Counted from the stretch's first letter, positions 1 to 19,488 are shown. The stretch is 19,488 bases of DNA from Spirochaetia bacterium (GCA_965140585.1 OZ223273.1:1-19488); one strand, 5' to 3'. A program made the numbers and translations. The notes: generated by a model from the sequence alone, not told the origin.

Positions 1-1
1 A

Positions 2-863
2 CAGCTTTCTGATTTCACCGCGGGAATTGAAGCCGCTCTGGAGAAAAATCGTAAAGGCGAAAGCCGCAGAATCAGCGCTGTAATTCCCGTTCACACAGGC
101 GGCTGCCTCTGCAGCATGAAGGTTATAAACGAAATGGCAGCTGCAGAGGGAATTGCCGTAATAGAAGACGGAGCACATCTGCAGCCGGAGCCGGATGCTC
201 TCTCGGACAGCAGAACGATGCTTGTGTATTCATTCTATGCTACAAAATGCATTGCTACCGGTGAAGGCGGAATGGTAATCACTGATAATGAAGAAGCTGC
301 CGCCCGGATGAAGCTGATGCGTTTTCACGGATTTGACAGGGAGGCCTGGAACAGGTATCAGAGCAAAGGAAAAAAACTCCTGGGAATACGACATTGCCGC
401 CCCGGGCTTTAAATATAATCTGACCGATATCGCTTCTTCTATAGGACTGGTTCAGCTTAAAAAAGCCGGGACTATGAAAGCCCGAAGGGAGGAGATTGCA
501 CGCAGATACAACGAAGCCTTCTCCGACTGCGGTTTTATCAGGCTGCCTCCCTCCCCCGTACAGAACTCCTGGCACCTCTATATTGCCGGTCTTATTCCCG
601 GCAGGCTCAACATAGATCGGGATGAGTTTGTTTTCAGGCTCGGGGAACTTGGAATAGGCACATCGGTTCATTATAAACCCCTCCATCTTATGAGTTATTA
701 TAAAAAAAGATACGGTTTTAAGCCTGAAGACTTTCCCAACAGCCTCAACAGGTTTAAAAATTCATTTAGCCTGCCGATTTACCCGGGTTTGACGGATGAT
801 GATATTTCGAGGATAATCAAGGCAGTACTTGATACGGGCACTAAATCATTCAGGAGAGTTTAA
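2..863 (+). CDS. DegT/DnrJ/EryC1/StrS family PLP-dependent nucleotide-sugar aminotransferase (5'-truncated by the window; apparent 1-nt frameshift at about 370-376)
   Basis: Frame 2 is open from base 2 and reads AVIPVHTGG...IEDGAH...SFYATK(PLP Lys)CIATGEGGM...RFHG. The family C-terminus (WEYDIAAPGFKYNLTDI...SWHLY...GIGTSVHYKPLH...SLPIYPGLT) continues in the frame of ORF 333..863. Removing one A from the A7 run at 370-376 joins the two frames as SKG-KNSWEY. Confidence 0.9.
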
Positions 864-2959
864 TGCCGGATACCCATAAAGGTAAAAAATTTATCTGTGA
901 TTATTATACAGCCGGAATGACTGTAATCAGGATAATACGCTCATCAGTAAGATCCGGTATTATCAAATCAGTCACCATCCCTGAAATGCCTGAGGGCTAC
1001 GGCATAATTGATCATTCAGGCATACCGGGTGATGCGGATCTTCATGTTTTCAACAGAAGCATGCCGGTTTTATGCAACGGAAGAGTAAACTACTTGGGCG
1101 AAGCTGTTCTGCTGCTATACGGTCCTGATGAAAGAGATCTTGATGACTTTGCTTCTGAAATAGTTATTGAATATGAAGAAACGGAACAGCATCTTGAATT
1201 TGATGATTTTGATCAGCAGCAGGTTGACCGTGAATGCCTTTACACAAAGGGCAAACCTGCAAAGAATTTCAGCAAAGCCGCTAAAGTAGTAGAAGAAACA
1301 TACCGGACAGCGCCCCAGCATCATTATGATCTGGAACCTCAGGGAGCTACTGCTGTCAGAATCGGCGACAGTATCGAACTCATAAGCGCGACCCAATGGC
1401 CTTTTAATGTAAGGGATAACGTCGCATCCGTGATAGGAATAAAACCGGCAGAGGTCACCATCAAGGTGCCCTCCATGGGAAAAACCCACAGCGGAAAGCT
1501 TTGGTACGCAGGCCTGCTGGCCAGCTATTCGGCACTTGTAACCTGGAAAACAGGCAGCCCCTCAATATGCCTTCTGACTAAAAAGGATTCCATTCTCTAC
1601 ACCCCGGGAAGAGCCGAAACAGTAATCACACATAAAACAGGAATGGATGAAAGCGGGCAGATTATCTGCAGAAGCATTGATATATCCCTCAACACCGGAG
1701 CCTACCCAATGCTTTCTGATGAGGTTGTGAACAGACTCTGTTTTTCAGCATCAGGAGTCTATAAAGTCCCCGCACTTGAAGTAAAAGCCAGAACCGTAAT
1801 CACAAACAGGTCTCCTGCAGGAGCCTTCAATGGAATGGGCTTCCACCAGGGCTTTCTGGCAGCAGAGATACACAATAACAGGCTTGCTGCAGAATCAAAC
1901 CTCGATACCCTGGAATGGCGGGTCAAAAATATTGCACAGTCATACAGCCAGCTTCCCATAGGCTGGGAAAACCGTAAAAACCTGCATTTAAAAAACCTGC
2001 TTGAGATGGTGGCTTCAGCCTCAGACTTCAGTCGCAAACAGGCTTCATATACGCTTGTGAACAGGGACCTGAACAAGTTTTCCGGTAATAGACGCGGAAT
2101 AGGAATATCTCTCTGCTGTCAAGGCAACGGATTCATGGGCAGAATAGAGGAAAACGAAAAATATACTGTTTCAGTACGGCTGGACAAGGAAGGAAAACTT
2201 TCAATAATGACTTCGGCAGTACCGGAAAATTTTCAGACGACCGCCCTCTGGAAAAAAATTGCGGGGGATATTCTGGAGCTTGAGACCGATGACGTTCTGA
2301 TAGAATCAACAAGCACTTCACTGGTTCCGGATTCCGGTCCCTCACTGTTTTCACGAAATATCACCGTAATCACTTCACTGATAGAAAAGTGCTGCAACGC
2401 CATAAAAAAAAGCCGGTTCAGGCTGCCCCTTCCTATAGAAGTTAAACGAAGCTACAGACTTTCGGGAAGCAGCAGCTGGGATCCTGAAACTTTCACCGGA
2501 ACCCCTTTTTCAACAGTATCCTGGGGAGCTGCAGTTGTAGAAACAGCAACAGACCCGATCAGCATGGATACAACGGTGCGTGGCGTCTGGCTTGCTGTTG
2601 ACTGCGGCAAGGTTGTTGATGAAACCCTGGCCCGGGCAGAACTGGAAACCGAAATATACCGATCTATAATGCGGACGCTTTTCCCCATTTCTGAAATCCG
2701 GCACCACGACAGCAGCATACCCGCTGCACCTCCGCAGCCTCTGAATCATATACCTATACGGATCGAGTTTCTTAAAAGCAGAGATCCCAAGCCTGGAGGT
2801 ATAGGCGATCTCCCTGACTGTCTGATTCCTGCTGCTGTGACCTCTGCAATCAACATGGGCTTGGGGATACAGACCAGCGATCTGCCGTCATCGCCCGAGC
2901 AGCTTTTTCATTTCTTTGACAGCAAGACTATTCCAGCGGAGATAAAAAATGACGATTGA
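863..2959 (+). CDS. Xanthine dehydrogenase/aldehyde oxidase family molybdopterin-binding (large) subunit homolog with degenerate motifs
   Basis: 698 aa. It has an a/b-hammerhead N-terminus (GRVNYLGEAVLL), QHHYDLEP, ATQWPF, RRGIGIS, PDSGPS..SR, WGAAVVE, VDCGKVV and GGIGDLP, which are recognisable but altered XdhA/CoxL motifs. The start overlaps the DegT stop (TAATG) with an AGGAGA SD upstream. Confidence 0.85.
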   Translation: MPDTHKGKKFICDYYTAGMTVIRIIRSSVRSGIIKSVTIPEMPEGYGIIDHSGIPGDADLHVFNRSMPVLCNGRVNYLGEAVLLLYGPDERDLDDFASEIVIEYEETEQHLEFDDFDQQQVDRECLYTKGKPAKNFSKAAKVVEETYRTAPQHHYDLEPQGATAVRIGDSIELISATQWPFNVRDNVASVIGIKPAEVTIKVPSMGKTHSGKLWYAGLLASYSALVTWKTGSPSICLLTKKDSILYTPGRAETVITHKTGMDESGQIICRSIDISLNTGAYPMLSDEVVNRLCFSASGVYKVPALEVKARTVITNRSPAGAFNGMGFHQGFLAAEIHNNRLAAESNLDTLEWRVKNIAQSYSQLPIGWENRKNLHLKNLLEMVASASDFSRKQASYTLVNRDLNKFSGNRRGIGISLCCQGNGFMGRIEENEKYTVSVRLDKEGKLSIMTSAVPENFQTTALWKKIAGDILELETDDVLIESTSTSLVPDSGPSLFSRNITVITSLIEKCCNAIKKSRFRLPLPIEVKRSYRLSGSSSWDPETFTGTPFSTVSWGAAVVETATDPISMDTTVRGVWLAVDCGKVVDETLARAELETEIYRSIMRTLFPISEIRHHDSSIPAAPPQPLNHIPIRIEFLKSRDPKPGGIGDLPDCLIPAAVTSAINMGLGIQTSDLPSSPEQLFHFFDSKTIPAEIKNDD

Positions 2960-3431
2960 TTTTTCACTGAACGGGAAAAAAGTATCTGTTGATGCTCCGC
3001 CGGAAAAAAGACTTATTGATGTAATTCGTGAGGATTTCGGACTGACTCAGACCAAAAAAGCATGTACAAGCGGAGAATGCGGAAGCTGTACAGTTCTGCT
3101 TGACGGCCAGCCGGTCCCGTCATGTCAGGTTCCGGTCTTTACGATACGGGCAAAACGAATTATCACCATCGAGGGATTTTCCCAGACTAAAGATTACACA
3201 GACATCATTGAAGCCCTGACTGCTGAAAAGTGCATTCCCTGCCCCTACTGTTTTTCAGGCAAGGTGCTGGCGGTTCACAGACTGATTGAAAACAGGCGGG
3301 AGCCAGAAATGAATGATATAATGCTGCTGTTATCCGATCATGTATGCAACTGCACTCCGGTTTCAAGCTTTTTACAGGCCGTAAAACGTGCATTCAGGAA
3401 CAGGGAGTTCAGGGGAGAACGCAGAAGATGA
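2949..3431 (+). CDS. CoxS/XdhC-type two-[2Fe-2S] small subunit
   Basis: C-x4-C-x2-C-x11-C (ACTSGECGSCTVLLDGQPVPSC), ITIEG, then CPYC and CNC for the second cluster. Overlaps the large-subunit stop by 11 nt, with GGAG upstream. Confidence 0.9.
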   Translation: MTIDFSLNGKKVSVDAPPEKRLIDVIREDFGLTQTKKACTSGECGSCTVLLDGQPVPSCQVPVFTIRAKRIITIEGFSQTKDYTDIIEALTAEKCIPCPYCFSGKVLAVHRLIENRREPEMNDIMLLLSDHVCNCTPVSSFLQAVKRAFRNREFRGERRR

Positions 3432-4285
3432 TGAAAAACCGCCGTTCTCCCCTGGTCTATTACCCGAAAACCGTAAATGAACTTCTCACACTTTATAAAT
3501 CCATGCCCGACAGCATGGTATACGCAGGCGGGACCGGTATTATGAGCAGCCGTGTAGAGAAGTACCCCAATCTCAACAGGAATATACTTTTTCTTTCCAG
3601 GATTGAAGAGCTTGCAGCTATCCGGCGTTCTGAAGGTTACCTTGAGATAGGAGCCTGCGCTAAACTGAACCGGATACTTGGAATCGGAGAACATGTTCTA
3701 AAGCCGGCTCTTTACAGAGCGCTGCAGAGCATTGGCACAAATGAAATCAGGAATCTCGCAACAATAGGCGGAAATCTATGCAGCAGTTACCGGATTAAAT
3801 CACTGCATCCGCTTTTCATCCTGCTTGACGTAAGACTGGAACTCAAAAAACACGGAGGCTCCCGCTGGGTTACCATGCGGAAATTTGACAATCCGGAAAC
3901 CGGGCTGCAGCCTGGTGAAATTCTCACAAGAATCAGAATCCCATTTAATAATTATAATTTCCAGAAATTTATGATAAGCGGCAATCTTAAATGCGATTTC
4001 CCCGGAGTACTTACATTCTGCAGCCTTGCAAATATTCAGAAAGAGGTCCTGACCGAAATAAAGTTTTCTGCAGGCTATGAAAACGACGGAATATTCAGGG
4101 CAAGGGAATTTGAAGACGCTCTTTCGGGCAGAAAACTGCCTATTTTCGGAATCCCGGAGGAACCGGTGTTCAACAGGCTTGCCACAGCACTTAAAAACCA
4201 GAGTCCTCCCCTTTCGCTGTTTCATCAGCAGCAGATTGAAGGCCTGCTTCTCTCCTTTATCCACTACCTCAATGACCTTATTTAA
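3428..4285 (+). CDS. CoxM/XdhB-type FAD-binding medium subunit homolog
   Basis: YYPKTVNELL, YAGGTG, LEIGA, IRNLATIGGNLC and LQPGEILTRIRIP motifs. The start is more likely ATG 3428 (ATGA overlap with the [2Fe-2S] gene stop) than 3344. Confidence 0.85.
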   Translation: MMKNRRSPLVYYPKTVNELLTLYKSMPDSMVYAGGTGIMSSRVEKYPNLNRNILFLSRIEELAAIRRSEGYLEIGACAKLNRILGIGEHVLKPALYRALQSIGTNEIRNLATIGGNLCSSYRIKSLHPLFILLDVRLELKKHGGSRWVTMRKFDNPETGLQPGEILTRIRIPFNNYNFQKFMISGNLKCDFPGVLTFCSLANIQKEVLTEIKFSAGYENDGIFRAREFEDALSGRKLPIFGIPEEPVFNRLATALKNQSPPLSLFHQQQIEGLLLSFIHYLNDLI

Positions 4286-4307
4286 ACAAGTCACATGCAA
4301 GTTCTTA

Positions 4308-4337
4308 TTGAATAAATGACCTATCTCGGGGTAATAT
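4308..4337 (+). promoter_or_regulatory. Putative sigma70 promoter for dnaE
   Basis: TTGAAT (4308-4313), 18 nt, TAATAT (4332-4337). GTG codons lie at 4341 and 4344 with no obvious SD. Confidence 0.4.
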
Positions 4338-4340
4338 TTT

Positions 4341-7300
4341 GTGGTGAATAATATACCCGATTTCGTTCACCTTCATACACATACTGATTATTCACTTCTC
4401 GACGGAGCTTCCTCCATAAAGAAGATTGTCGCTAAAGCTGTATCCCTGGGGATGAAGCATGCTGCCATTACCGACCATGGAAACATGTTCGGTGCACTCC
4501 GCTTCTATGAGGAATGCAAATCAGCCGGAATCAACCCGGTAGTCGGATGTGAGCTATATGTCGCCCCCGGTTCACGCTTTGTTAAATCAGGTTCCGAAAC
4601 AGGAAATAAATACAACCACCTGATTCTTCTGGCTAAAAGCGAGAAAGGATACCGGAATCTCATAGAGCTGAGCTCAGCCGGATATACTGAGGGCTTCTAC
4701 TACAAACCGAGGATTGATGATGAGATCCTTGAGAAATACTGTGGTGATCTGATCTGCTCAAGCGCATGTCTTGCCGGAGAAATACCCTCGCTGATAATGT
4801 TGGGTAAAAATGATCAGGCCATGGAAAAAGCCGGTTTTTACAACGAACTCTTCGGTAAAGGCAACTTCTACCTGGAACTGCAGGATCATGGAATTCCTGA
4901 GCAGAGGACCGTCAACAAGGCAATAATCGAAATATCGAAAAAAACCGGTATACCGATGATTGCAACCAACGACAGTCACTACATCGACCGTGAGGACGCC
5001 AATGCGCAGGATATTCTGCTATGTATAGGAACCGGACGGCATAAGAACGAAACTAACAGAATGACCTTCGATACCCAGGAATTCTATTTCAAGAATCAGC
5101 AGGAGATGTATGAGATATTCCGTGAAGTACCCGAAGCCCTTTCAAATACTGTAGAACTCGCTGAAAAATGCAATATAGATATCAAATATCCGGGACCGCT
5201 TCTGCCGGTTTACGATATTCCGGCCCCGCATAAAGGACCCGGAGATTACCTGAGAGCCCTTACCTATGAAGGACTTGAGTTCCGCTATCCCGGCTACGGA
5301 CCTGAAATCAAGGAAAGGGCCGACTTTGAACTTGATACGATTATTTCAATGGACTTCCCCAGTTACTTTCTTATTGTCTGGGACTTTATCCACTGGGCAC
5401 ACGAGAATGATATTCCGGTAGGGCCTGGACGTGGCTCGGGAGCAGGCTCAATTGTCGCATATGCACTTAGAATTACGGACATCGATCCGCTCAAGTACGA
5501 ACTTCTCTTTGAGCGATTTCTCAACCCTGAACGAGTATCGATGCCTGACTTTGATATCGACTTCTGCTTCGAAAGACGGCAGGAGGTTATCAATTACGTA
5601 ACAGAGAAGTACGGTAAGGAAAAAGTCGGACAGATCATAACCTTTGGAACTCTTAAAACAAAAGCAGTTCTCAAGGACGTCGCCAGAGTACTGGATATCC
5701 CTTTTTCTGAATCGGATGCAATTTCAAAGCTTGTTCCAAATGAACTGAAAATGAGCCTGAATAAGGCCCTTGAAATGGAACCGAAACTCAAGGAATATTC
5801 AGAGCGCGGCGGAATTTACAACGAACTTTTTGACACAGCCAGAAGGCTTGAGGGCTTAAGCCGTCATGCATCAACACACGCAGCGGGTATAGTTATCGGG
5901 CAGACAAAACTGACTGATTACGTCCCGCTCTACCGTGATAAGACGGGTGCAATTTCCACCCAGTATACGATGGACCAGATTGAACCTCAGGGACTTGTAA
6001 AGATGGACTTCCTGGGGCTTAAGACCCTGACACTTATCAAAAACACAGAGACCCTTGTCAGGAAAAAAATTCCTGATTTCTCTATCGAAAACATTCCCGA
6101 GGATGACGATCCAACCTTCAAGATGCTCAGTGAAGGAAAGAGTACCTGTATCTTCCAGTTTGAAAGTTCCGGAATGCAGGGGATTCTTAAGCAGGCCCAG
6201 CCTAACTCAATTGAAGACCTTATAGCATTGAATGCCCTGTACAGACCGGGGCCAATGCAGTACATACCCCAGTTTATCGACAGTAAAAGCGGAAAAACCC
6301 CGATTACCTACCCGGACCCGGCTCTCGAGGAAACTCTCAAGCCGACCTACGGTGTAATCGTATATCAGGAACAGGTAATGAAGGTCGCCCAGATAATCGG
6401 CGGCTTTTCACTGGGAAAAGCGGATATTCTGCGCCGTGCGATGGGTAAGAAAAAAGAAAAAGAAATGGATAAGATGAAGATCGAGTTCATCGAGGGCGCT
6501 GTAGCACAGGGCCTCGACAAGAAGCACGCTGACAACATCTTTGAAATGCTTAAACCCTTTGCCGGATACGGATTCAATAAATCCCACGCTGCGGCCTACT
6601 CCGTTCTGGCCTATCAGACAGCCTACCTGAAGGCAAACTTTCCTGCTGAATTTATGGCGGCAAACCTTACTAACGAAATCAACAGCCCCGACAAGCTTAC
6701 ACAGTATATTGCCGAGGCAAACGGTATGGGTATCGAACTATGCCCGCCGGATATGAACCTCTCCGATATGAAATTCACAGTTGTCGATGACAAGATCATC
6801 TACGGACTGATCGGTATTAAAAATGTCGGTGAAGCTGCTGTTGAGGAAATTCTCAAACAGCGTGAGAAGGGCGGAAAATTCAAGAGCTTCATCGATTTCA
6901 TCGAGCGGGTCGATCTGAAGACTGTTAACCGGAAGGTTATCGAAACAAGCATACAGACCGGACTTTTCGACTCGTTGGGAGAAAACCGTGCGACATTGAT
7001 GCACAATCTCGACAGGATTCTCGAATTTACCAGCCGGTCCAAGGCGGATCAGGGTGTCGGCCAGACCTCCCTCTTCGATGATCCGGAACATACCGAATTT
7101 CATTCAATTGAACTCGAACCTGTAGAGGAATGGCCCAAAAAGGAACTTCTTAATTTTGAAAAAGACTTCCTGGGATTCTACTGCAGCGGCCATCCCATGG
7201 ACAGCTACAGGAAGATGTGGGAGAAAGTCACAAATATAGACCTTTCCAACCTTGAACGGGCAAGCAACGGTAAAAAATACAAGCTTATCGGCATGATAAA

Positions 7301-11087: not shown

Positions 11088-12179
11088 ATGAATAATAAGA
11101 CAATGATGAAGGTTCCCCAGGGTTCAGAAAGTTTCTTTTTTGAGGAAGCATTTATTCACCGGAAAATTACAGAAACCCTCCAGAACCTGTTTAACTCCTG
11201 GGGTTATCTGCCTGTAGAAACCCCGGTTTTCGATCTTTACGATGTCTACAGGGAGCTCATTCCCTCCGGAGATGATGAAAGAATTTACAGGCTGATAGAT
11301 CGTGACGGTGATCTACTTATGCTCCGCTCTGATATAACACTTTTTCTTGCCCGACAGATGGGTCTGATTCTATCAGAGGAGGATCTTCCCGTTAGAGTTT
11401 GCTATTCAGACAGCATCCTCAGACATCAGGACTCAGAAGATATTTCACACAACGAGTTCTACCAGACCGGTGTTGAGCTTATAGGCAGAGGCGGCTTCCG
11501 CGGAGATATGGAGATACTCCTTCTTCTTGCAGAAACTGTAAATCTGCTTGAAATTCCTGTTAAAGTTCATCTGGGTTCACATGCTCTGTTTAACCTTATG
11601 TTCGCCGGATTCTCCGAAAAAAAGAGACTGGGACTTCAGAAAGCCATAAGCCTGCGCGATTTTGATAGGGTTGCTGAAATAACGGGAGAAGAAACCGGCG
11701 AATACGGAAGCAGAAAAATTGCAAAACTTTTCGGCTTCATAGGCGGCAGCAAAGATTTCACCGACTTCATCAATGAGAATAAAGACAGTTTCCATATAGA
11801 TATCTATGAAGAACTCAAGTATCTGAACAGCCTTGTATCATCACTTGAAAACACAGGCTTCTCAGACATTTTCACACTTGATCTTTCAGAAATTGGAAAC
11901 CAGGCCTACCATACCGGTATCGTTTTTCAGGTATACATGGATGAAGTAGACTCTGCGGTTATTTCCGGCGGTAGATACGACAACCTGCTTCTGAACTTCG
12001 GAATTAACGCTCCGTCGGTAGGTTTTTCATTGCTTCAGAGAAAGATAGAACCGGGGATAGGAAACAGAAAACGCTTTGCACCGCCGGCAGACATATTTGT
12101 TGCAGATGATGAAAATGTCATTGAAGCTTTCAGGAAAGCGCTCGAACTCCGGAAAGAAGGAAAAATAGCAGTAATATGA
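11088..12179 (+). CDS. hisZ: ATP phosphoribosyltransferase regulatory subunit
   Basis: HisRS-like catalytic fold (WGY.PVETP, LMLRSDIT, EFYQTGVELIG, YHTGIVF, SGGRYDNL, SVGFS) without a full anticodon-binding domain. Directly upstream of a short-form hisG. Confidence 0.92.
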   Translation: MNNKTMMKVPQGSESFFFEEAFIHRKITETLQNLFNSWGYLPVETPVFDLYDVYRELIPSGDDERIYRLIDRDGDLLMLRSDITLFLARQMGLILSEEDLPVRVCYSDSILRHQDSEDISHNEFYQTGVELIGRGGFRGDMEILLLLAETVNLLEIPVKVHLGSHALFNLMFAGFSEKKRLGLQKAISLRDFDRVAEITGEETGEYGSRKIAKLFGFIGGSKDFTDFINENKDSFHIDIYEELKYLNSLVSSLENTGFSDIFTLDLSEIGNQAYHTGIVFQVYMDEVDSAVISGGRYDNLLLNFGINAPSVGFSLLQRKIEPGIGNRKRFAPPADIFVADDENVIEAFRKALELRKEGKIAVI

Positions 12180-12829
12180 ACAATAATCAGCCATTACTTT
12201 TCGCTCTGCCCAAAGGCAGACTCATGGAACAGACACAGGAAATGCTTGCCACAATGGGCATTGATTTTTCTTTTGATAACAGAAAGCTTGTTGCAGATGA
12301 TAAAGATGGAAACCTGAGGTTCTTTCTGGTAAAAAACTCGGATCTTCCTACATATATTAATCACGGAATCGCAGGTCTCGGGATTTGCGGTTCGGATGTC
12401 ATCTATGAATCCGGTCACGATTTTTATAAACTTCACACCTTCTCATTCGGTGGGACAAAGATGTGTCTCGCAGGTTTGAAGGATAACCACAACTCAGGAA
12501 ATGAAGCTTCACTCAAGGTTGCAACAAAGTTTACCAAATTCACCAGCGACTATTATCACAAGGCCGGCAAACCGGTTCAGGTGATTAAACTAAACGGGTC
12601 TGTTGAACTTGGACCTGTTCTGGGGCTTGCTCCATATATTGTTGATCTTGTTGAAACAGGAAATACACTGAAAGCAAATAATCTTGAGGTTATTAGAGAG
12701 CTTGCCCCTATCAGTGTTCATCTGATTGCTAATCCTGCTTATTACAAACTTAACTATAAGCGGATAAATAAATTTGTCGATGATATTATCAAAGGGGAAG
12801 CTCGATGGCTGGAAGAAAAGCAGAAGTAA
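12176..12829 (+). CDS. hisG: ATP phosphoribosyltransferase, short form
   Basis: ALPKGRL, GICGSDVI.E, VATKF, IKLNGSVELGP..GLA..IVDLVETGNTLKANNL. At 217 aa it lacks the regulatory domain. ATGA overlap with hisZ. Confidence 0.96.
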   Translation: MNNNQPLLFALPKGRLMEQTQEMLATMGIDFSFDNRKLVADDKDGNLRFFLVKNSDLPTYINHGIAGLGICGSDVIYESGHDFYKLHTFSFGGTKMCLAGLKDNHNSGNEASLKVATKFTKFTSDYYHKAGKPVQVIKLNGSVELGPVLGLAPYIVDLVETGNTLKANNLEVIRELAPISVHLIANPAYYKLNYKRINKFVDDIIKGEARWLEEKQK

Positions 12830-13401
12830 TCAGAAAAACTAAAGAAACAGATATAAAACTCACAGTTGATCTTGATTTAAAGGGAATTAAACCGGAAATA
12901 AGCACCGGAGTCCCTTTTTTTGACCATATGCTGTACTCTATGTCTTATCATGGCGGCTTTTTCCTGAAAATTGATGCTGCCGGAGATATTGAAGTAGATC
13001 CCCATCATCTTGTGGAAGATACAGGACTGGTTTTGGGCGAAGCTTTTCGGCAGGCAGCTGAAAAAGGCGGCCCCTTAAGCCGCTTCGGACATTTCATTGT
13101 ACCTATGGATGACTCACTTTCTGAAGTCACCGTTGATGCCTGTGGACGCCCCTATCTAGTATACCGGGCGGAATATCCTCAACAGCTTGCCGGAAATTTT
13201 GATTTAAGTCTGGTTAAAGAGTTTATGAAGGCATTTTCCGACAGAGCTGGGCTAAACCTTCACGCTGAATGCCGCTATGGTGAAAACGGTCATCACATGG
13301 TTGAGGCTCTCTTCAAGGCACTTGGCAAGGCGCTTGGGCATGCCTATGCACTTTCGGGCAGCATTGAAGAGCTTTCTACAAAAGGTACCTTATCAAAATA
13401 G
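12805..13401 (+). CDS. hisB: Imidazoleglycerol-phosphate dehydratase (monofunctional)
   Basis: RKTKETDI, STGVPFFDHML, GDIEVDPHHLVEDTG, PMDD, NGHHMVEALFKA and STKG.L. Overlaps hisG by 25 nt. Confidence 0.96.
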   Translation: MAGRKAEVIRKTKETDIKLTVDLDLKGIKPEISTGVPFFDHMLYSMSYHGGFFLKIDAAGDIEVDPHHLVEDTGLVLGEAFRQAAEKGGPLSRFGHFIVPMDDSLSEVTVDACGRPYLVYRAEYPQQLAGNFDLSLVKEFMKAFSDRAGLNLHAECRYGENGHHMVEALFKALGKALGHAYALSGSIEELSTKGTLSK

Positions 13402-18002: not shown

Positions 18003-19488
18003 ATGAGAACTGAAAGTATTTTTGACATTTACTATAAAAACGGATATGCGTGGCTCACTGTGTACCCAAGGGATGATTCCAGAACTGTCTACCCGGAGGA
18101 TATTACCGGAAGGCTGCATCTTCTGGGAATAGATAATGTACGGCGCCAGGTGATAATTGATATCATTGACTCAGGCGACGGAACACCCCACCCTCTCACA
18201 GAGTGGCCTGAAGGCCGGCATCTTGCCCCGGAAATAACTGTAGAAATCTCTGATGACCTGATGACTGCATGGATTACTGTGAAAGCAGGGAAACAGGGCG
18301 GAGAGCCTCTGAGTACTGAAATGCTTAGATCCGCACTTAAAGACGCCGGAGTCATCTACGGCATTGATGATGATGTACTTAAAACTGTTTCCTTCCGGGG
18401 CATTTACAATCAGAAGGTAGCGGCTGCTCATGGGATCGAAGCTGTTGATGAAAAGGCAGCTGAACCTGAATATTTCTTTGTAACTGACAGACTCAAACCC
18501 TTCCGTGAGCTTGAATTTAACCGGATTGATCTCAAGGAGCTCAATTTCATCCAGAACAAGCAGGCGGGCGACGTACTCGCAGTCCTGGGAACACCGGTAA
18601 AAGCCGCGGAAGGCGCGACATCACCGGTGCAGTGCTTGAACCCTTAAGAGGCACCATTGCCCAAAACTTTGAAGCCGGAGAGGGGGCTCTGCTTGCAGAG
18701 GACGGGAAATCCATCACAGCAGAAATTGACGGCAACGTGAGGCTGTCCGAGGGCGCAGTAACCGTTGATAAACTCATTGCAGTTGAGAATGTCGATTATT
18801 CCAACGGAAACATGGACTTCAACGGCTCAATCGATATAAGCGGCAGAATTGCCGACGGTTTCACAGTAAAAGCTGCAGGCGATGTACAGATAGGCAAGTC
18901 ACTGAGCAGGGTTGATATTTCATGCGAGGGAGATCTTATTCTTAAGGCAGGGATTTCCGGCAATGATGAAGGGAAAATCTATTGCGGCGGGAATCTGTAT
19001 GCGAAATATATAGAGAGCGCCAATGTAACCTGCAGGGGAAATATAATAGTCGAAGAGGCAGTCATGCACTCACGAATAAAGGCTGACGGGGACATCCTGC
19101 TTACCGGGAAAAGAGCGGAAATATTCGGGGGAAGGATATGCGCCGGAGGCAATATCAAGTGCAAAAAACTGGGCTCGATAAACGAACCGGTCACCGAGAT
19201 TTTTCCCGGTGTAGACATAGAGAGGTTCAGCCTGCTTGAGGAGCATCAGGATGCGGTGAGTTCGATGAATAAACGGCTGAACGAACTCGATACAACGCTG
19301 AGGCAGCTTAAGAATGCCTTGTTAAAAGTTGAAGACCAGGAAATCCCCAGACAGAAGGTTTTAACAGCCATAGACCAGCTATCTGCAGAGTCGGAAGAGA
19401 TAAATAAAAGGCTCAGCAATGAACTCAGGGATCTTCATGAACTTAAAAAAGACCTGACGGCAATGAAGCCTCCACCGTTTCTGTAGAC
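18003..19488 (+). CDS. FapA (DUF342) family protein, frameshifted near 18614 and probably near 19455; runs off the window
   Basis: The N-terminal part shows VEISDDLMTAWI, LKDAGVIYGID, VAAAHG...VD and RIDLKELNFIQN...GDVLA. The C-terminal beta-solenoid part shows NVDYSNGNMDFNGSIDISG, GFTVKAAGDV, GGNLYAKYIE and GGRICAG, then a coiled coil. A 1-nt insertion near 18614 restores EG-RDITGAVLEP. Confidence 0.85.

Follow-up and report, generated by a model that had tools for sequence, protein, structure and literature searches.

The 19,488-base stretch of DNA analysed here (the window) is the entire contig C10 of a Spirochaetia bacterium (GCA_965140585.1, OZ223273.1:1-19488), whose parent assembly comprises 4.85 Mb in 10 contigs. 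Near its start lies a trio of genes encoding proteins related to the subunits of xanthine dehydrogenase (XDH), viz. a large (L), a small (S) and a medium, FAD-binding (M) subunit. The reading frames of L, S and M are intact and open, lie on the + strand and overlap end to end, as the original prediction for this DNA had described, and they follow a gene for a DegT-type aminotransferase that ends at 863, its stop codon overlapping the start of L. Our analyses largely support the presence of an XDH-family heterotrimer that lacks a molybdenum centre and that occurs in a conserved, new genomic context. The features of this locus are as follows:

2..863, + strand: DegT/ArnB/PglE-type sugar aminotransferase gene, 3' two-thirds, truncated by the contig start; frames 2-412 and 333-863
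863..2959, + strand: L, 698 amino acids (aa), predicted full fold of the XDH molybdenum subunit, with degenerate molybdenum cofactor (Moco) motifs
1478..1498, + strand: GKTHSGK, replacing GGGFGGK (alignments to XDHs)
1829..1831, + strand: Asn323, replacing the Arg of AFRGFG (L reads AFNGMG)
2636..2671, + strand: AELETEIYRSIM, replacing GQxxGGxxQGxG (alignment to canonical spirochaete paralogs)
2807..2809, + strand: Asp649 of GGIGD, at the position of the catalytic Glu (alignment)
2949..3431, + strand: S, 160 aa, with eight Cys for two predicted [2Fe-2S] clusters
3428..4285, + strand: M, putative FAD-binding subunit with AGGT and R..ATIGGN motifs; its ATG at 3428 overlaps the stop codon of S

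The open reading frame (ORF) as called for M extends from 3344 to 4285 (313 aa). Its first 28 codons have no counterpart in 109 relatives, and the start of M is therefore placed at the ATG at 3428 rather than at 3344.

Cofactor sites of the three subunits

The L protein matches the Pfam domains MoCoBD_1 (3.2e-49) and MoCoBD_2 (1.9e-20), and its hammerhead domain scores 22.9 bits, under the Pfam cut-off of 31.3 bits. The 13 NCBIfam models of XDH subunits that were listed for it (pucD, XdhA, xdhB, Se-dependent XDH etc.) all fell far under their curated cut-offs, the best of them, pucD, giving 185.9 bits against a cut-off of 783.65. An AlphaFold2 (AF2) model of L has a mean predicted local distance difference test score (pLDDT) of 87.1 and a predicted template modelling score (pTM) of 0.88, with dips in confidence at residues 201-210, which form an altered loop, and 610-617. 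A Foldseek comparison of this model with bovine xanthine oxidase (3etr_C) gave an E-value of 4e-56 and a query TM-score (TMq) of 0.88 over ~734 columns. On the strength of the model, L is predicted to keep the full fold of the XDH molybdenum subunit with no domain missing. The earlier suggestion that the C-terminal region is shortened holds to the extent that L has 698 aa, compared with 711-716 aa in the canonical sister clade described below, but it does not extend to the loss of a domain.

The motifs GGGFGGK, (A)FRGFG, MGQG, T/PTAAS and GQxxGGxxQGxG provide the Moco contacts in XDHs, and GxGE is catalytic; all of them are replaced in the L protein of the window. In a residue-level alignment with human/bovine XDH, the best match of L in the PDB (1.1e-29), GKTHSGK stands opposite GGGFGGK, AFNGMG opposite AFRGFG and PENF opposite MGQG, and in the alignment with canonical spirochaete paralogs AELETEIYRSIM stands opposite GQ..GG..QG.G and GIGD opposite G.GE. 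The substitutions and motif coordinates given in the original prediction were exact throughout. In most close relatives of the window the position of Asp649 is occupied by Glu, not Asp. Within QEHFYLE and GGRHP, respectively, the window protein still has the Gln and the Arg that we take to be Gln767 and Arg880 in bovine numbering.

The replaced motifs have also drifted among related proteins. In 68 sequences of this degenerate type, one per genome, the mean frequency of the most common residue was 0.26-0.57 in the six former Moco-contact motifs, compared with an average of 0.43 over all columns. The five cofactor-binding motifs (0.26-0.40) show no more conservation than columns do on average, and G.GE reaches 0.57. 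Of these sequences, 24% still have the residue presumed equivalent to bovine Gln767, at most 16% that of Arg880 and 43% that of Glu1261. Both the canonical sister clade and other XDH paralogs have the corresponding motifs intact. Among the milder members the sequence of the loop is DGKLWYP; it is DGRIWFP in the genus g2 and takes the form of unrelated strings, e.g., NSIWYN or NGMWRN, in the genus g8. N-terminal extensions of 150-180 aa, seen in L at some high-GC loci, were rejected as a feature of the family, being Arg/Pro-rich read-through of the ORF caller with no domain.

The loss of the catalytic motifs is what would be expected if these genes were the decaying remnants of a purine XDH, i.e., pseudogenes in the making. 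The frames are, however, intact in nearly all genomes, and the ratios of nonsynonymous to synonymous substitution (dN/dS; Nei-Gojobori method) within g2, a genus without the Moco genes (8 genomes; 28 pairs, of which 27 were usable for S), were 0.069 for L, 0.076 for S and 0.062 for M, with 0.060 for L of the window against a relative 92% identical in protein sequence. Since values of ~0.06-0.08 are far from 1, these genes are not decaying. The trio is also kept in a genome of only 1.14 Mb and its structure is predicted with confidence, so that simple decay, which the original prediction had named as an alternative, is very improbable indeed.

Both of the electron-transfer subunits retain their characteristic motifs. 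The S protein matches Fer2_2 and Fer2 (Pfam), and its eight cysteines in the window are C39, C44, C47 and C59, followed by C98, C101, C133 and C135. In XDH the N-terminal cluster adjoins FAD and the C-terminal cluster adjoins Moco. All eight Cys are retained in 65 of 67 genomes, the last pair being C-x-C in 50 of them and a C-C variant in the other 15; an apparent loss of the seventh Cys in those 15 genomes was discarded as an effect of this variant on the alignment. The M protein matches FAD_binding_5 (5.6e-32), an FAD-binding domain of the PCMH type, and its FAD motifs are near-invariant: in AGGT, Gly62 is present in 107 and Thr64 in 106 of 109 sequences, and in R..ATIGGN, Thr140, Gly143 and Asn144 are present in 106, 108 and 99 of the 109. 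The Pfam domain CO_deh_flav_C was undetected at the C-terminus of M in the window and was detected in the canonical paralog. As judged from these motifs, S most likely carries two [2Fe-2S] clusters and M most likely binds FAD.

Two genomes depart from this pattern. In G102, a single contig of 1.14 Mb from the same class, His, Asn, Ser and Tyr replace the four Cys of the plant-type, FAD-proximal cluster of S and the other four are kept (L037 7270-7737), and in G210 almost all of the eight Cys are lost (L171 8823-9302); L, S and M are intact in both. These losses would suit a trio that serves as a non-redox scaffold or ligand sensor with vestigial redox centres, as would the differences among genera in the pocket motifs of L and the observation that the residues of L conserved in at least 85% of sequences are mostly Gly, Pro and charged. 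Such residues also look fold-conserved in canonical XDHs. Were the centres vestigial, one would not expect 65 of 67 genomes to have the full set of eight Cys, nor the FAD motifs to be near-invariant even in G102, and hence we regard this explanation as unlikely. With the [2Fe-2S] ligands kept in S, the FAD site kept in M and the Moco site lost from L, the trio is most likely a Moco-independent Fe-S flavoprotein.

Phylogenetic distribution and molybdenum cofactor biosynthesis

A protein search returned 177 matches, and every name given by the source was spirochaetal. A scan of one genome per species identified 227 loci; 76 of the best 80 carry labels of the Spirochaet-, Treponema-, Rectinema- or Breznakiella-type and the other 4 are labelled only 'bacterium'. 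A protein atlas returned only the spirochaete clusters of the family itself, either without a name or labelled as XDH. A profile of the family matched 136 of 401 sampled Spirochaetota genomes, including all 50 genomes of the family f2; it gave no match in the families f5 (8 genomes of 1.0-1.8 Mb) and f20 (75 genomes).

Typing of the matches by their motifs separated them into two groups, one canonical (TGGAFGGKE, AFRGFGGPQ, VEMGQG, VPDSGPTVASR, GQIEGG..QGLGY, AGELPF) and one degenerate, to which the window belongs. A FastTree phylogeny was built from 116 large subunits; the 105 degenerate sequences in it fall into a single clade that contains no canonical member, and the sister of this clade is a canonical group of nine members. 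Support is 1.0 both for the canonical group and for the node that joins the two, and 0.44 for the node of the degenerate clade. The sister clade scores 460-560 bits against a profile of the degenerate clade, compared with ~120-270 bits for other XDHs.

The canonical group includes a paralog in the genome of the window itself (G000:C6:742760-744838). This paralog lies in a purine/urate-type catabolic cluster (G000:C6:738000-756000; L039) that holds two canonical XDH trios, the neighbours being two amidohydrolases, an ornithine carbamoyltransferase (OTCase)-like protein, a pyridoxal phosphate (PLP) enzyme, an M20 peptidase, a dihydroorotate (DHO)-dehydrogenase-like protein and the second XDH. 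The Moco genes moaC and moeA (the latter in two copies) lie ~40 kb away from this cluster.

The relationship between the degenerate L and Moco biosynthesis was examined in 65 genomes of the same class that are 96-100% complete and lack MoaC. All 65 carry a degenerate L, which is full-length in 63; G374 was typed separately, and in G245 a fragment at a contig edge was typed at its C-terminal motifs only. Profile searches for MoaC, MoeA_N and the MoaA C-terminal domain, each of which matched 11 of 14 named control genomes, gave 0 matches in the 65 for all three, so that the degenerate L is not always accompanied by Moco biosynthesis. A domain of the bis-molybdopterin guanine dinucleotide (bis-MGD) enzymes was found in one of these genomes (G398), and the degenerate L is the sole match to PF02738 in 57. 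The family f25 served as a positive control: of its 38 genomes, the 24 with the canonical sister type are precisely those with MoaC. In G323 and G210 the L protein is of the same mild DGKLWY type as in the window, with the Gln, Arg and Glu kept, and MoaC, MoeA_N and MoaA-C are missing; retention of these residues is therefore not tied to Moco.

Eight of the 65 genomes also carry XDH paralogs (225-273 bits), viz. G015 (C1, ~24.9-27.0 kb; L175), G042, G215, G323 (C1:670690-671409), G371 (6 extra PF02738 matches), G374 (C8 and C35), G377 (C5, C6 and C13) and G380 (C1:2642-2652 kb). The paralogs fetched from G015, G323, G374, G377 and G380 have fully canonical motifs, and that of G015 seems to be frameshifted near its C-terminus. 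Canonical paralogs in genomes without the Moco genes could reflect recent orphaning, scavenging or another supply route. Because of these eight genomes, the missing biosynthesis genes are support for, and not proof of, a Moco-free cell, and the case for Moco-independence rests on the combination of their absence with the drift of the motifs.

The same paralogs, by hinting at a supply route, lend some weight to the possibility that the trio is still a molybdenum (or tungsten) hydroxylase that holds its cofactor through unusual loops, with the Moco either made in the cell or scavenged. The window genome itself has MoaC and MoeA, and in L of the window type the Gln and the Arg are retained and the catalytic position is still acidic. 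On the other side, five cofactor-contact motifs have been replaced together and then drift freely among genera, and the mild type is also found in G323 and G210 without Moco genes. Moreover, 57 of the 65 genomes have no other xanthine oxidase (XO)-family gene, 64 have no bis-MGD enzyme, and no XdhC-type gene is seen among the annotated recurring neighbour clusters. A surviving hydroxylase is thus quite improbable. The claim that Moco binding has probably been lost is largely supported by the motif drift, the phylogeny and the profile of Moco genes, and Moco is very probably absent from the protein.

Sugar-nucleotide operon

Our analyses have identified a conserved order of genes at these loci, in which a NusG paralog (NusG and KOW domains, ~180 aa) is followed by a 4,6-dehydratase of the CapD/PglF type (Polysacc_synt_2, ~495 aa, E ~1e-110), a DegT/DnrJ/EryC1 aminotransferase (E ~1e-100) and then L, S and M. 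Counting genes on the same strand, and only loci with sufficient upstream DNA, the upstream genes were distributed as follows:

DegT aminotransferase: 85/98 loci of the degenerate clade; 0/10 canonical loci
Dehydratase: 68/72 loci of the degenerate clade; 0/4 canonical loci
NusG paralog: 66/71 loci of the degenerate clade; 0/4 canonical loci

This order is kept in the 92%-identical relative (L045), in the complete genome of Breznakiella homolactica (L093) and in G102, where the trio, at ~87-90.6 kb, sits behind a dehydratase and a DegT gene and is followed on the opposite strand by a sigma-54 activator with a GAF domain. In the window, stop and start codons overlap at the DegT/L, L/S and S/M junctions. 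As judged by gene order and codon overlap, the trio makes up the distal half of an operon that is conserved and putatively translationally coupled, and that had been overlooked in the original prediction. Downstream of the trio lies dnaE. A scan of positions 1-4700 for promoters and terminators gave counts no higher than those in shuffled sequence, and no RNA data set was listed as covering the window. The degenerate trio is apparently also kept in syphilis-type treponemes. The earlier suggestion of a similar cluster in Treponema pallidum fits both the G102 trio and a published entry discussed below.

The aminotransferase of L045 has ArnB as its nearest match (6.3e-78) and still carries the catalytic Lys (SFYATK opposite SFHAIK of ArnB). 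An analogy with the E1/E3 type of deoxygenation was rejected on these grounds. A NeuB-type nonulosonic-acid synthase is present in all 65 genomes, in 61 of them at E<=1e-48, which is consistent with a nonulosonic-acid pathway in an unspecific way. Several treponeme-like genomes encode a protein of ~650-690 aa within a few kb of the trio, which in G102 (L037 10292-12370) matches DUF4015, a putative glycosyl hydrolase, and elsewhere (G383:C13:157038-157628 and G344:C56:87453-88043) gives weak partial matches to the NeuB profile.

The DegT gene of the window is read in two frames, both of which match DegT_DnrJ_EryC1 (Pfam; 4.5e-26 and 2.3e-32). The ortholog in L045 is intact and 90% identical to the window at the DNA level. 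The frame change sits in a run of seven A at 370-376 of the window, where L045 has six, and L045 has one more base near position 20. A contig of depth 2 from the run X2 has one base fewer at 370 and an extra A after base 19, i.e., exactly the two differences seen in L045, which argues against a dead gene. The frameshifts are probably homopolymer assembly errors or strain differences. The dehydratase gene is absent from the assembly of the window and falls in the gap between the contigs C4 and C10. The first 97 codons of a NusG paralog, 96% identical to that of L045, lie at the extreme end of C4 (G000:C4:3-293, - strand), and C4 and C10 are probably neighbours across this gap.

Elsewhere in the window, an ordinary run of hisZ-like (tRNA-synt_His), hisG and hisB (IGPD) genes occupies 11088-13401, and FapA_N (1.3e-20) and FapA (2.2e-51) are found in overlapping ORFs in different frames (18003-18647 and 18632-19486). 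These two domains usually share one protein, and the split may be another assembly frameshift.

Interpretation and significance

Taken as a whole, we slightly favour the reading that the trio is a Moco-independent Fe-S flavoprotein serving the synthesis of amino-deoxy-sugars or glycans, with L as a scaffold or ligand-binding module. A duplicate of a purine-type XDH would have lost its cofactor site and become part of a sugar-nucleotide operon. In this operon, the dehydratase and the aminotransferase would make a UDP-4-amino-4,6-dideoxy-N-acetylhexosamine (HexNAc), the product expected from enzymes of the PglF/PglE, CapD and ArnB types, and such a 4-amino-4,6-dideoxy-hexose would be a likely precursor of bacillosamine or of glycans of the nonulosonic-acid type. 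The trio, translated from the same message by way of the overlapping stop and start codons, would supply FAD and two [2Fe-2S] clusters on a large, cofactor-free L acting as a scaffold and/or as a binding module for another ligand, and it could give or take electrons in a tailoring step. That an actual redox step takes place on the sugar or its acyl group is doubtful. Equally tentative is the idea that the former pocket of L has been re-used for a nucleotide-sugar or acyl substituent, with S and M delivering electrons there or removing them.

A number of observations count against this reading. Electron transfer through S is not universal, because G102 and G210 have lost Fe-S cysteines. The 68 degenerate L sequences contain no conserved set of residues resembling a new shared active site, and with the loss of Fe-S ligands in two lineages this speaks against a universal catalytic role for L. 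To these are added the Gln, Arg and acidic residue retained in the window type, the Moco made by the window's own genome (MoaC and two MoeA on contig C6) and the canonical paralogs of the eight genomes named above. With regard to the sugar pathway, the DegT gene is absent at 13 of the 98 loci of the degenerate clade, and its normal catalytic Lys implies that the operon DegT is not a dehydrase of the E1/ColD type that would need an Fe-S reductase. NeuB is common, having been matched also in 9 of the 14 control genomes, and just 5 of the 65 genomes (G180, G200, G275, G317 and G383) have it less than 10 kb from the trio (6-9 kb, from coordinates compared by eye). The functional link between the trio and the sugar genes is drawn from gene order only, and we consider its chances a little better than even.

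Some of these points would be met equally well by a Moco-free Fe-S flavoprotein of general electron transfer (e.g., an NAD(P)H-linked oxidoreductase) that is only co-expressed with the sugar genes. In its favour are the persistence of the FAD and Fe-S motifs and an aminotransferase that has the usual Lys and is missing from 13 of 98 loci, and we know of no chemistry by which an S/M module of the XDH type would be connected with a 4-amino-4,6-dideoxy sugar. Such a general role would, however, leave unaccounted for the dehydratase-(DegT)-L-S-M order with its overlapping codons, which is kept from free-living Spirochaetia to a genome of 1.14 Mb, is not seen in the canonical sister clade and stands out against an otherwise variable spirochaete gene order. 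We therefore regard general electron transfer as possible, although clearly less probable than a Moco-independent flavoprotein in the service of sugar or glycan synthesis.

Comparisons with known systems place the trio closest to the heterotrimeric XDHs and molybdenum hydroxylases (XdhABC, PucCDE, CoxLMS, Qor, HcrABC), with which it shares the L-S-M order, the fold of L, the eight Cys of S and FAD_binding_5 in M. It differs from them in that its Moco motifs are replaced and unconstrained, in that it is present in genomes without detected Moco genes, and in that it belongs to a sugar-nucleotide operon, whereas the hydroxylases belong to purine or aromatic catabolic clusters. The canonical spirochaete sister clade likewise shares the L-S-M order and a similar length of L, but it keeps GG(A/G)FGGKE, AFRGFGGPQ, MGQG, VPDSGPTVASR, GQ..GG..QG and GE, co-occurs with MoaC, and has no DegT, dehydratase or NusG paralog upstream. 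A precedent for a molybdopterin-enzyme fold that is kept without its cofactor in an Fe-S/flavin complex is the Moco-less domain of NuoG/Nqo3 in complex I, which differs in belonging to the DMSO-reductase-type superfamily and in not being a separate three-subunit enzyme. In the E1/E3 system of CDP-3,6-dideoxyhexose synthesis, a DegT-family pyridoxamine phosphate (PMP) dehydrase and a [2Fe-2S]/flavin reductase act together, and the shared feature is the joint encoding, in a deoxy-sugar pathway, of an Fe-S flavoprotein with an enzyme of the DegT family. The operon DegT differs in keeping the catalytic Lys and in its nearest match (ArnB at 6.3e-78; E1 at only 7e-21), and the reductase here would be of the XDH type, not the FNR type.

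In the literature searched, which did not cover author manuscripts outside the library, no paper on the trio was found. Searches for TP0080 and TP0077/78/79/81 (including 'quinoline 2-oxidoreductase') gave nothing on treponemes, those for molybdenum utilization gave none with Treponema, and no paper joined 'xanthine dehydrogenase' with 'nonulosonic'. The combination of Treponema, xanthine dehydrogenase and molybdopterin gave only unrelated papers, and flagellin glycosylation in T. denticola gave nothing bearing on the trio. The term 'orphan molybdoproteins' has been used by Peng, Xu and Zhang (2018; BMC Genomics 19:691, PMC6147048), whose Table S1 lists at least one XO-family protein in 19 of 19 Treponema genomes and the Moco pathway in 4 (T. 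medium, T. phagedenis, T. primitia ZAS-2 and T. vincentii). T. pallidum Chicago, T. paraluiscuniculi and T. denticola ATCC 35405 are entered there with one XO protein and no Moco (Peng et al., 2018). Relative to the orphans as they are presented in the table and text consulted, the present analyses add a single clade with motif loss, purifying selection and a conserved operon. Within the sources covered, we found the trio family in print only as unexplained orphan XO entries in this table.

These results resolve one large group of orphan XO-family proteins as a single clade, which would be cofactor-less, rather than as gaps in sequencing. They also indicate that the XDH-type labels attached to these proteins wrongly imply purine catabolism and a molybdenum requirement in treponemes. 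A trio subject to strong purifying selection and kept in a host-restricted genome of 1.14 Mb, together with its sugar operon, points to a step in the biology of envelope or flagellar glycans, and the trio would exemplify a multi-subunit redox enzyme that retains its electron-transfer half after the loss of the catalytic metal. If the re-use of the former pocket of L should prove true, the trio would be a molybdenum-independent redox enzyme in the synthesis of glycans of the bacillosamine or nonulosonic type, possibly those of flagellin, and important enough to survive genome reduction in syphilis-type treponemes.

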